A DNA stretch of 40,582 nucleotides from Alistipes sp. (lineage in GTDB: Bacteria > Bacteroidota > Bacteroidia > Bacteroidales > Rikenellaceae): NCBI GenBank assembly GCA_017630245.1, contig JAGBVQ010000151.1, forward strand, positions 1 to 40,582, in the 5' to 3' direction. A program made the position numbers and the translations under genes. Numbering within the stretch: position 1 is the first letter of the stretch; each line of letters begins with the position of its first letter. The notes below the pieces were generated by a model, which ran no database searches, had not been told where the DNA came from, and saw only the letters and a program-made list of their open reading frames with translations. Shown here piece after piece: positions 1,360-22,850 of the stretch.

Positions 1360-3819
1360 TTATCTCCAAATAAAGTCGACGATTACGGGGAGGTGGTCCG
1401 AAGACTGGCTCCAGAAGTTCGAGATGCCGGTGCGCTTACCTGTGGTGAAGCCTACCTGCGGGCTCTTAGCCTTAATCATCGAGTTGAGCATAGGCTCGCT
1501 ACCATACATAAGGTCGATACGGCCACCACCCTGGGTCGACCAAACCATAATATCGCGCTTGTCGGGGCAGTTGTAAACCTTAACAAGGTCGGTTACCTGC
1601 TTCACGTTCTCGAGCATATACTTCTGGCCCCAGTAACGAGGATTCTCATAACCGAAGTTGTAGTCACGGTCATCGAGCGGAGTCGAGCAGTTCATATCAC
1701 CGGTGATGATCCAATACTTCTCATCTGCAAACTGCGGATTGAGGATCGAACGCTCCATAAATGCCTGGAACTCATCCTTACGGGTCTTGTGACCACCGTG
1801 GTTGCGGATGCTCTCTGCAGCCTCGGGAGTACCACGCTTCATACCCATCTCAAATGCCTGCGGCCAAGTGTGGAAACCTACGAGGTTAACCACCTTGCCA
1901 TCAACCTCTACCTGCGAGTGGATACCTCCGTGCGAAATGCCCTTGCCGCCCAGACGCTGAGTAAACTTGATGGGGTACTTCGAGGTGATAACTACGGGGT
2001 AGTTGTCCTGGTGAGCACCTACAGCAACGTAGGGGTGACCGAAGCGAGCTGCAAGCTCAATCCAACCGGTCGGCACAAGGTGCTCGGTCTTGCCGCGCTC
2101 ATACGACTGACCCTTGTAGGGGAGGTAGCGCTTCTCGTTCACCTGCTTGTCGCCAGTGTGGTCGATATAGATAGTCGATGCCTCGCAGAATACAGCGATG
2201 TCGATATCCTGCTCGTTCATCCACTTCACGAAGTTGTCGTAGTTGTTGTGCTGGTCGGCCCACATACCGTTCTGGATATTGTAATCCATAATGCGCAGGA
2301 TGCGCTCGCGGGGAACGCTCGAGAGCAACTTAACCTCGATGTCGTCGATGTAGAAACCATTGACATCCTTAGGCAGCGGAGATGCCGAAGTCCACGAAAA
2401 TGCAGTCTCGGCAGTAGCACCGCTAATCACGAACTTAACATCAGACCAATACTTCTTTTCGTCGTCGTTGTACGACATACGAACAGCCGTGTTAAGGATC
2501 GTTACACGCTCGATATTACTATTGATGAAGGGGTAGTTATCGCGATCGAGTGTGCGGCGAACACCATCAATCCACATCTCTTTGATAACACCTGCATTGT
2601 GAGCAGTGAACTGCAGGGGCGAAGTTGCGCGAGCCTGAGGAGAGAACTTGAACGAAACCTCAATCTCGGCAATACCATTGATATCCTTCATTGCAGGAGT
2701 TCTAACGATACCGCGATTGTCGTTGTGTACGCCTACGCCGAGAAATCCCTGATACTCCTGTGCGCGGAACATCATCTTCCAATCGGCGATGTTACGGTTG
2801 CTCAGATACTCTGCGCTCATTGTACCCTCCTCTTTGAGAGACTGCTTGTAGCCGGTCTGGAGGTAGTTTGTACCTGCAACCTCGTGAGTTACCAAGTAGA
2901 TGGGGCGCTCCGTACCGGTCGAGGTGTTGCTGATCTGCTTTTTGCCTGCCACGGGGCTGTAGCCCTTAGCGTTCTTGCCACCCATACGGTTACCTCCATA
3001 TACGAAGTTGTCGAACTTCTCCGAGAAGAGCTGATCTGCTGCGGGCTTATATGCAATCACATCGATGTCTGCAACGGCATTAACCTTAACCTCGAAAGGC
3101 TTGGTGTCAATGGTCATTGTGTGGTGCGAACGGTCGGTGATGGTCACCTTCAGACCCTTGCTATAGTTGCCTGCGGGGAGAACCATATAGAACTCCTTGC
3201 CCTCAGCTGTAAGAGCTACACCCTGGCCATTGTTGCTACAATCGAGCGTGGTGAAGTAGACACCTGCTGCTGTTGCGGGGCGCTGAATAAGGGCTCCGAG
3301 GTTATCGTCCCAGTTGAAATAACCAGAGAGGTAGATACCTTTGTTATCCTCAACCTTGATACAGTTTACTGCTGCATCACCCGAAACCTTCAGGCGGAGA
3401 AGACCACACATCGGCTTAAAGGTGAGTACGTTGTTTGTTGCCTGAACGGCACGCATAGGCATATAGATACGGTCGAACGAGCCCTCCTTGTAGAGCTGAA
3501 CGGGCATCAAGCGGAAGTTGCTGTGCTTACCCTTGTCGAGGCTCGAGCAATCAGCGGGATATGCGCCACGATAGTCGGCTTTCGAATTTGCATCAACAGT
3601 AACAGAAGCCTTGCCCTTCTTGTTTACCTTGAGGGCGTATTTCTGGCCATTAACGGTAATCTCATCACCGTTCTTGAATGTTGTAATTTCGGGATTGATT
3701 GCCGTGAGTGAAGCGTCTGCCTCGGCAGTCACCTTCAGTGCAGCAATTTGAGTTTGCTGGGCAGTGGTAGTTGTAACTGCCAGAGCAAGAGTTGCAATTG
3801 CTAAAAATATCTTTTTCAT
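1360..3819 (-). CDS. Secreted multidomain protein: fimbrillin-like and beta-sandwich N-terminal module plus C-terminal endonuclease/exonuclease/phosphatase (EEP) domain
   Basis: Signal peptide without lipobox Cys; EEP motifs [32 protein letters not shown]-terminal ~500 aa aligns by eye with 19401..22850. Confidence 0.85.
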
Positions 3820-3846
3820 ATCGTTCTATTTATTTCGGGTTAGAGA

Positions 3847-22400: not shown

Positions 22401-22850
22401 AGCTCTCACGAGGTTATTCCGTTTAGTAACCTCAATAAGGAACTTACACTTCGTGCATACGACAAGAATTCGGATTATACCATCACTGAGGGCTCGTTTA
22501 CTGCCAATAAACCAGAGAATGACGATGCAACGAAGAGTGCTCCTGCGGTGATTGTTAATGCGTGGGGTGCTAAGAGTGTGACCTTCCGTGAGTCTACGGG
22601 CGGAACAGGAGTTACCAAGCAGGGTGTATTCGATCCCTACTATCGCACTTGGTTCCACCAATCTTTGGCTTCGAGCGATAGAAACTCTATTCTCTGTAAT
22701 AAGACCTATCCCGACGGCCCGGGCTGGCAGCAACCATATAATAGTAACCATATCTGGAAGTATATCCCCTCCGACCCTTCGGCAAGTGTTACGGCAACCA
22801 TTACCGATGAGTTTGGCTCTACTCGTACCCTGACATTGCAGGCTAAGTAG
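19401..22850 (+). CDS. Lipoprotein: fimbrillin-like and beta-sandwich module fused to a calcineurin-like metallophosphoesterase
   Basis: Lipobox AIA-C; TTRASL; GVVVSDG...TKTDAEGRY (MetallophosN-like); DSH, GDMTQ, GNHDHD, H, GHSH metal motifs. Confidence 0.85.
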   Translation: MKRIFRFVLMVAALMAIACTEDTTIDSLVENDLVEENEYIGESVRLSLDTTRASLNGLDMAFQQGDVVSVNGKNISVRIDKSGAYLLVPKAEDNIYRAVFPAEAAVAFMDAGNCSYVHSNMQVYSPGSFGKDAMCLVSYRDLNGSPEGGDITFNAMLGVLKLTVKGDAEVRSIRLQNNAFNSADASTAMSGRTRFVTAKGTLLGANVIEDAHHAAPAGASGMTEDIVLMCNDTNGTGVKLSQEGTDFYFTLYPREYAQGFTVTISDNDGKSQKFSTSGSTTVAVNTLVEMQPMTYAPDKDLIFAESFDVCVYGGDLVAYRTGSNVWRGRLPIHRDGTVVEGLPILSTHTDQDGLQPGYYYSNSAMAKSGDGVTQHKIVTPGLIFADYTEEGTGYSATMADVISAGKLRVTPELLNVRGFNDWYISRCIEYHGYLAVGNERALNSTSSFKFNMNPLGVLTTPYMPISGSVDVEVFFDIAAGDGVTGYCKKDSPTASNSFYTFQPDATEADEANNIYWREDKFRFCVVGGTGLATIIKLEFVDENGGVMVKEDGTLMSYESSGSYVEVPESDIPEEWARVKVLVKNADDKTRFRFYNNQATRYMTYHIDNIEVRRADLSYIPEDANVTGTVTCEGQPMQGVVVSDGEHVTKTDAEGRYYLQSDLETTSHVFITIPSGYEMTGRKNNIAPAFFAALKNTETVQICDFQLKKVDQTNYTILTMADSHVLKGAANFGSTNDRTLFMNEFLPKWKSYANECLAKGPVYGIHLGDMTQQAYWKKKVSILGYTYTYDNYSLASYCADLKSSPVPIFSVMGNHDHDIPKSGTFGEDEQHLARKSFTSAVGPAYYSFEIGTEHYIVLDNVVIINSDSGTNNYNDNTATGYKVKIDSKQLQWLKDDVAQIDQSKIKGVVICTHCQFYYANKGLATIRANEVMAAVNKFPVTLLVGHSHVYRYLEANTPTYSKSVREYLTPALMGTAWHDSMTCTDGTPASFVAFTFKDGKTSSHEVIPFSNLNKELTLRAYDKNSDYTITEGSFTANKPENDDATKSAPAVIVNAWGAKSVTFRESTGGTGVTKQGVFDPYYRTWFHQSLASSDRNSILCNKTYPDGPGWQQPYNSNHIWKYIPSDPSASVTATITDEFGSTRTLTLQAK

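Follow-up and report, generated by a model that had tools for sequence, protein, structure and literature searches.

A predicted pilin-fold and jelly-roll chassis shared by two Alistipes proteins with unrelated phosphoesterase-type heads, and the SusC/SusD loci that accompany it

The window analysed here is a stretch of 40,582 nucleotides from an Alistipes sp. assembly (GCA_017630245.1, contig JAGBVQ010000151.1, positions 1 to 40,582, forward strand). It holds two genes whose products, P0001 and P0002, are alike over about 475-575 N-terminal residues and end in different catalytic-type domains (Table 1). In what follows, the chassis is a pilin-fold N module plus a module termed M, and the head is the C-terminal domain that comes after M. 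A preliminary description of this DNA had seen in the two proteins one fimbrillin plus beta-sandwich module with a swappable catalytic head, and had held that the shared module links the two loci functionally. I show here that the shared front half of P0001 and P0002 is real and that their heads are unrelated.

BLASTP pairs residues 1-393 of P0001 with residues 1-478 of P0002 (26% identity, 486 columns, E 1e-30), and six motif pairs are colinear in the two proteins, the last of them, which falls beyond the BLAST high-scoring segment, ending at 2329 and 21236 (~2330 and ~21240 as first reported). The local score is 208 for the N part (best of 500 shuffles 57) and 91 for the M part (best of 500 shuffles 68), neither being equalled by any shuffle; late M alone gives a weak 42, reached by 2 of 500 shuffles, and the two heads score 38, reached by 180 of 500 and hence at chance level. 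A profile of 17 relatives carrying a third, TIM-barrel head, built with P0001 and P0002 left out, spans residues 257-497 of the former and 295-613 of the latter end to end. The colinearity first described therefore holds in pairwise as well as in profile alignment. No Pfam family matches the shared part at E 0.01. RNA-library contigs from six runs cover portions of both genes, in small shares and with no silent control, and one of them (2260-3632) bridges the M-EEP junction of P0001.

Table 1. The two chassis proteins, their parts and the other genes of the window
Position	Strand	Feature	Basis or remark
1360..3819	-	P0001: pilin fold + M + EEP head, non-lipidated form, 819 residues	intact open reading frame
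3760..3819	-	P0001 signal peptide without lipobox Cys (putatively SpI-like); no Arg/Lys at pilin maturation position	
3052..3747	-	N module of P0001, residues 25-256, predicted type V pilin double beta-sandwich	structure model
2323..3051	-	M module of P0001, residues 257-499, outside Pfam; jelly roll of galactose-binding-like type predicted, plus additions peculiar to the family	
1363..2307	-	EEP head of P0001, catalytic-type motifs intact (N514, E546, D708/N710, D769, D808/H809)	
19401..22850	+	P0002: lipoprotein, pilin fold + M + calcineurin-like head, 1149 residues	intact open reading frame
19401..19556	+	P0002 lipoprotein signal (Cys19), first strand, Arg52 at pilin maturation position	
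19521..20282	+	N module of P0002, residues 41-294	BLASTP, profile
20283..21242	+	M module of P0002, residues 295-614, with insertions	profile alignment
21258..22847	+	MetallophosN + calcineurin-like + MetallophosC head of P0002; DxH, GD, GNHD, H, GHSH motifs intact	
3847..5391	-	Paralogue: second half of M + EEP only	46% to P0001
5416..6813	-	Paralogue: second half of M + EEP only	45% to P0001
6832..7902	-	GDPD-family glycerophosphodiester phosphodiesterase, head of left cluster	same order in L030, L032-L035
16754..19324	+	Lipoprotein without M; N-terminus pilin-like, tail weakly Fib_succ_major-like	
22884..24557	+	Calcineurin-like phosphoesterase without chassis	42% to P0002 head
24595..26238	+	Calcineurin-like phosphoesterase without chassis	39% to P0002 head
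26261..29353	+	SusC of the clade adjoining most chassis genes	
29366..30970	+	SusD	
30992..32041	+	BACON lipoprotein	
32057..34267	+	Pilin-fold lipoprotein without M	paralogue of 16754-19324
34288..36648	+	BACON + DUF5689 lipoprotein	
36712..38310	+	DUF5689 protein	
38328..40430	+	BNR (sialidase-like) propeller fused to EEP domain, at locus end	

The head of P0001 belongs to the EEP superfamily: PF03372 matches residues 513-809 with 29 bits (cut-off 24.5), and the N, E, GDxN, D and SDH motifs are present. That of P0002 (residues 627-1141) is a calcineurin-like metallophosphoesterase, with PF16371 and PF00149 above cut-off, PF16370 matched as well, and the DxH, GD, GNH, H and GHxH motifs in place. 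Each protein thus enters the domain that had been named for it, and I take the motifs of both heads to be of catalytic type. PDB searches by sequence with single heads found no relative. The best PDB profile match of the EEP heads is the LINE-1 endonuclease (E 6e-7), sphingomyelinase-type matches scoring nearly equal.

The structure of P0001 residues 25-499 was modelled from a 96-row alignment (pLDDT 97, pTM 0.94), a single-sequence fold of P0001 (pLDDT 31) having been discarded; P0002 was assigned by homology. Residues 1-237 of the model resemble the Bacteroides type V pilin 3T2L (Z 13.5, root-mean-square deviation (rmsd) 4.0, 202 residues aligned), and the four top Foldseek and VIA matches of the model are Bacteroides pilins (3T2L, 3SY6, 3UFI and 4K4K; Z 11.8-13.5); the double transthyretin-like beta-sandwich of such pilins is accordingly predicted in both proteins. 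Model residues 238-475 resemble galactose-binding-like jelly rolls over ~130 of 238 residues, among them reelin (Z 10.4, rmsd 3.0, 129 aligned), the carbohydrate-binding module CBM22 (Z 9.4, rmsd 3.7, 140 aligned) and a gingipain adhesin (Z 8.9), so that M has the predicted jelly-roll fold of a carbohydrate-binding module. The fimbrillin plus beta-sandwich make-up is in this way recovered in the predicted model.

M is covered by no family of Pfam or NCBIfam; a few relatives show weak Mfa_like_1 and MAM scores that stay below cut-off. An Atlas query with the homologue P0016 returned unnamed Bacteroidota clusters with no family on the aligned part, and profiles of M and N brought up no relative when run against PDB sequences. 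The non-glycine residues D270, E304, R342, E355, R369 and W458 of M are conserved in 83-96 of 96 rows, and its opening ExFD and closing DDI blocks are presumably akin to the calcium site of galactose-binding-like jelly rolls.

The front half is composite. The genome has pilin-only proteins, many relatives have M without a pilin, and the window genes in 3847-6813 retain only the second half of M; since pilin-only, M-only and half-M plus EEP proteins all exist, pilin and M are two separable modules, and of the single module first proposed it is the reuse in both proteins that stands. The genome (1.84 Mb, 81% complete) encodes 13 pilin+M proteins: 10 with an EEP head, one calcineurin-like and two with a PF01261 TIM barrel. 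Such heads are absent from all 14 of its pilin-only proteins found by the same N profile or BLAST, a comparison weakened by the fact that some of these controls are cut by contig ends, and from four further proteins with an Mfa_like_1 region.

Beyond this genome, the M profile matches 241 representatives at E 0.001 (50% representatives), of which the best 150 were taken, with the two window proteins, for a census of heads; 53 rows were checked by Pfam and the rest assigned by tail clustering. The rows with N, M and a non-FN3 tail of 60 or more residues number 73, namely 46 EEP, 19 TIM, 6 calcineurin-like, one SGNH and one uninterpretable; four further representatives are complete but headless. 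The domains fused to the chassis are thus more varied than had been noticed. M matches 72 of 301 genomes of the genus as against one of 400 others across the order, and the named relatives belong to Alistipes, Rikenellaceae, Cryptobacteroides and other Bacteroidales. Scanning metagenomes with the M domain of P0002 gave one short locus. Among the candidates, P0145 (an M fragment with a GDPD fragment), in which both domains are cut, was discarded as probably chimeric, and P0147 and P0198 as unrelated repeats or unplaced.

On a quick tree of M (95 rows), head labels change 7 times over six groups, for a minimum of 5; the TIM heads form one branch (93) and EEP accounts for two changes. Heads are clade-stable, hence their swaps were ancient and few: they are swappable in that several types occur, yet not in the sense of frequent exchange. 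The M domains of P0001 and P0002 are not sisters on this tree. The two genes being distant members of a 13-gene family, the shared module alone does not establish the functional link between the two loci formerly drawn from it; P0001 is a derived, non-lipidated outlier of the family. Both window loci also sit on one contig, 15-20 kb apart, in genomes G488 and G691.

The third head type, the PF01261 TIM barrel, has the pattern H,H,E,D,H,H,D,H,E invariant in 21 of 21 rows. Eight of these nine residues are visibly aligned to matching residues of endonuclease IV 3AAL, and tagatose epimerase 8XIV is without the second His. On the assumption that the nine are the metal ligands of endonuclease IV, the TIM heads would have the full set. 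The endonuclease IV model TIGR00587 (nfo) reaches 18.1 bits against a cut-off of 129.65, in one of six TIM proteins scanned; among NCBIfam models, the phosphodiesterase CbiR is the best in most cases (25-48 bits, cut-off 105), and the best PDB profile match is endonuclease IV. Given the ligand pattern and CbiR as the best model, the third head is, to judge from its residues, probably also a phosphodiesterase. Databases label the TIM-headed proteins sugar phosphate isomerase. Exported PF01261 barrels with checked ligands stand in phosphoesterase loci at L001:4510-7092, L002:1073-3745 and L018:8985-11525, and free-standing copies in L156, L158 and L161, the ligand check having covered the chassis-fused ones; the exported barrels are likely a new group of secreted phosphodiesterases.

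The genomic context of the chassis was surveyed in two samples. The first consists of 78 GTDB loci with EEP-headed genes only (97 EEP heads, one cut), since that scan confirms with P0001; other head types were for this reason sampled by hand, as 20 core and 20 distant-M loci out of about 170 matches. Among the GTDB loci, SusC is found in 45, SusD in 41, DUF5689 in 38, GDPD in 12 and the NAGPA phosphodiester glycosidase in 5. The usual gene order is chassis-EEP, small lipoprotein, SusC, SusD and BACON/DUF5689 proteins, and the right locus of the window is the calcineurin version of that layout, as are L144, L148 and L149. Over its full length, the SusC of the window shares 46-62% identity with its counterparts in 34 of the 78 loci and with those beside TIM and headless chassis genes; other full-length matches reach 31% or less. 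On a SusC tree of 38 rows, a single clade (support 100) gathers all 17 SusC of the window's type that were sampled from chassis loci and splits into EEP, TIM and calcineurin+headless subclades like the M tree; a second clade takes in four SusC encoded next to chassis-EEP genes. Since head type, on the trees, is constant within a lineage and tracks the SusC subclade, whole loci diverged, with heads replaced only a few times. In L051, L053, L060, L079 and L080, chassis-EEP genes adjoin SusC of the second clade, or partners of that clade, together with BACON + NAGPA lipoproteins.

Phosphoesterases abound in these surroundings. With the chassis head counted, one is present in 18 of the 20 core loci, and all 20 distant-M loci have one; DUF5689 is found in 14 of the 20 core loci. 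A count in three complete genomes puts MetallophosN no more than 10 kb from 8 of 10 SusD loci that bear M, as compared with 13 of 95 other SusD loci, an enrichment that is overstated, kin loci not being independent; the two M-bearing loci without a nearby MetallophosN have chassis genes of EEP and TIM type. Other neighbours are organophosphate-antiporter-like MFS proteins, DeoR regulators, histidine and purple acid phosphatases, S1/P1 nuclease (twice) and glycosidases (GH2, 3, 30, 31, 95, 109 and BNR). Distant-M loci hold GlpT/UhpT-like antiporters, DeoR regulators and a gene resembling glycerol-1-phosphate (G1P) dehydrogenase. A second, more distant M family of FN3/BACON + M lipoproteins marks other SusC/SusD loci (L152-L171), next to metallophosphoesterases, GDPD, antiporter-like MFS proteins, DeoR, PfkB kinase and alcohol dehydrogenases; these are candidate polyol-phosphate utilisation systems.

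The members of the family are best read as enzymes of the cell surface or periplasm that belong to an as yet uncharacterised system of Alistipes/Bacteroidales. I lean, with modest confidence, towards a single family in which a pilin-fold stalk and M carry several unrelated heads, likely cutting phosphate bonds, and which likely serves SusC/SusD foraging of phosphodiester-linked glycopolymers, most likely teichoic-acid-type polyol-phosphate polymers. The pilin fold, predicted to be a rigid spacer, would hold the protein off the outer membrane by its lipid anchor; M, followed as it is by an EEP, a calcineurin-like, an endonuclease-IV-like TIM or, once, an SGNH head, or by nothing, might bind or position the polymer beside the head, and it is the gene context that suggests such phosphopolymer binding. 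The head would cut phosphodiester links, SusC/SusD would import the pieces with the aid of BACON/DUF5689 lipoproteins, and such non-lipidated proteins as P0001, its half-M neighbours and GDPD may finish hydrolysis in the periplasm. Two pilin modules stand in tandem before M in L019:2386-5616, P0056, P0058 and P0102, which fits a spacer of variable length. Polymers of teichoic-acid type are placed ahead of nucleic acid because genes for GDPD, NAGPA, antiporter, dehydrogenase and glycosidases lie nearby and a separate ddb-like locus is present in the genome; the glycosidases of chassis loci fit a glycosylated polymer.

Conversely, the loci might forage nucleic acids, the heads being nucleases or nucleotidases, DUF5689 and M binding DNA or RNA, and SusC/SusD acting as the counterpart of ddb; I consider this unlikely, albeit deserving of serious attention. 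DUF5689, with the frequencies given above, corresponds to DdbD, which is modelled as DNA-binding in the available part of PMC12478041, S1/P1 nuclease genes directly follow the TIM-chassis genes in L018 and L140, and the best profile matches of EEP and TIM heads are both endonucleases. Yet a separate ddb-like locus exists in the genome (PF19580 EEP, DdbC-like transporter and Endonuclease_NS; L128), its DUF5689 matches elsewhere are far stronger (135-142 bits) than those in the window (35-41), and S1/P1 nuclease is found in just one of the 78 and one of the 20 loci. Moreover, GDPD, NAGPA and glycosidases do not fit a diet of nucleic acids, and the sphingomyelinase-type matches of the EEP heads are nearly as good.

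It seems quite improbable that M is only a structural spacer, its link to phosphoesterases being historical because heads were taken over from neighbouring genes in a locus already rich in them. Chassis-free head copies do lie next door (22884-26238, 39-42% to the P0002 head; free EEPs adjoining chassis genes in L020 and L021), head changes on the M tree are few, and an SGNH head occurs; nevertheless, chassis loci retain headless pilin+M as well as M-terminal lipoproteins, in a position typical of binding proteins, and the six conserved residues of M named above argue against a mere spacer.

Several observations weigh against phosphopolymer foraging. On the side of the proteins, the SGNH head and the four headless representatives depart from the phosphoesterase theme, fusions to the three heads arose rarely and long ago, the jelly-roll Z of 9-10 is modestly above a background of 7-8, and such a fold shows no function by itself. 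On the side of the loci, 33 of 78 are without SusC within 10 kb (many are on short contigs), and some (L047, L051, L065, L079) use the second SusC clade. The clearest polyol-phosphate genes, the G1P-dehydrogenase-like one (2 of 20) and the antiporter (3 of 20), sit in distant-M loci, the antiporter being present in only 1 of 78 GTDB and 2 of 20 hand-picked core loci, and all NCBIfam matches of either kind are below cut-off. Finally, the DUF5689 proteins and the S1/P1 nucleases beside TIM-chassis genes point to nucleic acid.

Export signals divide the family. P0002 has both the lipoprotein signal and the Arg/Lys after the first strand that are typical of type V pilins; P0001 has neither. With lipoproteins counted by a lenient Cys rule and the maturation residue by column (strict lipobox and TR patterns undercount), the Cys is present in 66 of 70 full-length representatives; Arg/Lys occupies the maturation column in none of 25 rows of the P0001 clade, in 37 of 56 rows outside it (background 10%) and in 10 of 10 of the P0002-type group. 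In a set of rows picked by hand, all six calcineurin-headed ones have both. This column pattern suggests processing in many lipidated members, though processing is apparently not required. Lacking Cys and Arg, and sitting in an rpoD-GDPD-EEP-EEP-EEP cluster conserved in L030 and L032-L035, P0001 is probably periplasmic.

Might the lipidated members be tip or adaptor subunits of type V pili, Arg-cleaved and joined by donor-strand exchange, and so make enzyme-tipped pili? I find this improbable. The predicted pilin fold and the Cys and Arg/Lys counts agree with it, a C-terminal donor strand is absent as in tip pilins (available part of PMC13655056), and the genome has, at other places, stalk-like and DUF5119 anchor-like genes. 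However, 19 of 56 rows are without Arg/Lys and P0001 is without both signals, so the module persists without processing; none of 22 window open reading frames scanned has a Pfam match to Mfa2, Mfa_like_1 or DUF5119, stalk and anchor candidates lying elsewhere in the genome; Mfa2, Fimbrillin_C and P_gingi_FimA were not found in the 81% complete genome; and Arg cleavage could equally free the enzyme from the surface. A complex prediction for the pilin part of P0002 (53-297) with the stalk-like P0204 scored 0.00 twice and is used neither way. Display at pilus tips is possible for lipidated members. That phosphodiesterases of three unrelated folds form the tips of catalytic type V pili, tied to a SusC/SusD importer and stripping teichoic acids or similar phosphoglycopolymers off other gut microbes, with M as a new phosphopolymer-binding module, is a long shot. 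Type V pilus-like operons with a 343-residue stalk-like, a DUF5119 anchor-like and long tip-like subunits lie at L124:2114-8564, L125:1-4719 and L003:1634-2515, and housekeeping genes separate P0204 from three chassis-EEP genes ~6 kb away.

As for the rest of the window, the two pilin-fold lipoproteins without M (26% over 677 columns) flank the right locus, recur in 8 of 78 related loci and, with their Fib_succ_major-like tail, are possible adhesin tips. The last gene (38328-40430) fuses a glycosidase-like to a phosphoesterase part, and tatA- and tatC-like reading frames were seen by eye in the DNA at the window start, 1-760 (-).

The observation is real, and M is an unnamed domain that marks an uncharacterised type of locus; no description of a pilin+M phosphoesterase family or fusion was found in the main texts of the open-access literature. 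Domain shuffling on Bacteroidota surface lipoproteins is ordinary in itself. Recycling of teichoic acids and phosphodiester polymers by gut bacteria is little studied, such loci are invisible to glycosidase-centred annotation, and M provides a marker for them, with testable targets in the complete genomes G011, G594 and G648. The exported 'sugar phosphate isomerases' on the chassis are suggested to be misnamed phosphodiesterases, and the question arises whether type V pilin folds display enzymes.

Among known systems, the Pus phosphate-utilisation system of Flavobacterium (PusCD1/2) combines SusC/SusD pairs with phosphomono- and diesterases, calcineurin-like ones included, and is proposed to scavenge phosphodiesters, according to the available part of PMC8115612. 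The present loci likewise co-locate SusC/SusD with phosphoesterases, the likeness being one of co-location; unlike Pus, they belong to gut Alistipes/Bacteroidales, carry enzymes on a pilin+M chassis as surface lipoproteins, and add BACON/DUF5689 partners and glycosidases. With ddbABCDEF they share DUF5689 proteins, secreted phosphodiesterases and TonB-dependent import (as far as PMC12478041 is available), but the window has a classical SusC (TIGR04056 above cut-off) and SusD instead of DdbC/DdbD, a divergent DUF5689 and no Endonuclease_NS. In the same genome, ddb-like DNA-utilisation genes lie separately at L128:1212-6000, a tandem pair of strong DUF5689 genes at L127:612-2073, and, at L129:4803-7372, an S1/P1 nuclease gene and a DUF5689 gene in divergent orientation.

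Type V tip pilins (BovFim1C/4EPS, BF1858/3T2L, Mfa4/5, and tips diversified by diversity-generating retroelements, available part of bioRxiv 10.1101/2024.11.15.621889) resemble the family in the double beta-sandwich, the lipobox, the maturation Arg of many members and an additional C-terminal domain that stands where a donor strand would be; here, however, that addition consists of a jelly roll and an enzyme and not of a lectin or adhesin, the genes stand in SusC/SusD loci, and the signals are lost in the P0001 clade. M is comparable to CBM4/16/22, the reelin repeat and the gingipain cleaved adhesin as a jelly roll (Z 8.7-10.4 over 126-140 residues), with ~100 further residues unaligned, identity of 6-15% and no Pfam match over cut-off. 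The TIM head has the metal-ligand pattern of endonuclease IV/CbiR (PF01261), both of which hydrolyse phosphodiesters (available part of PMC7733943), but it is borne by an exported lipoprotein and falls far below the nfo and CbiR cut-offs given above. To sum up, by analogy the family may work like a polysaccharide-utilisation-locus- or Pus-like system with ddb-like DUF5689 partners and tip-pilin architecture.

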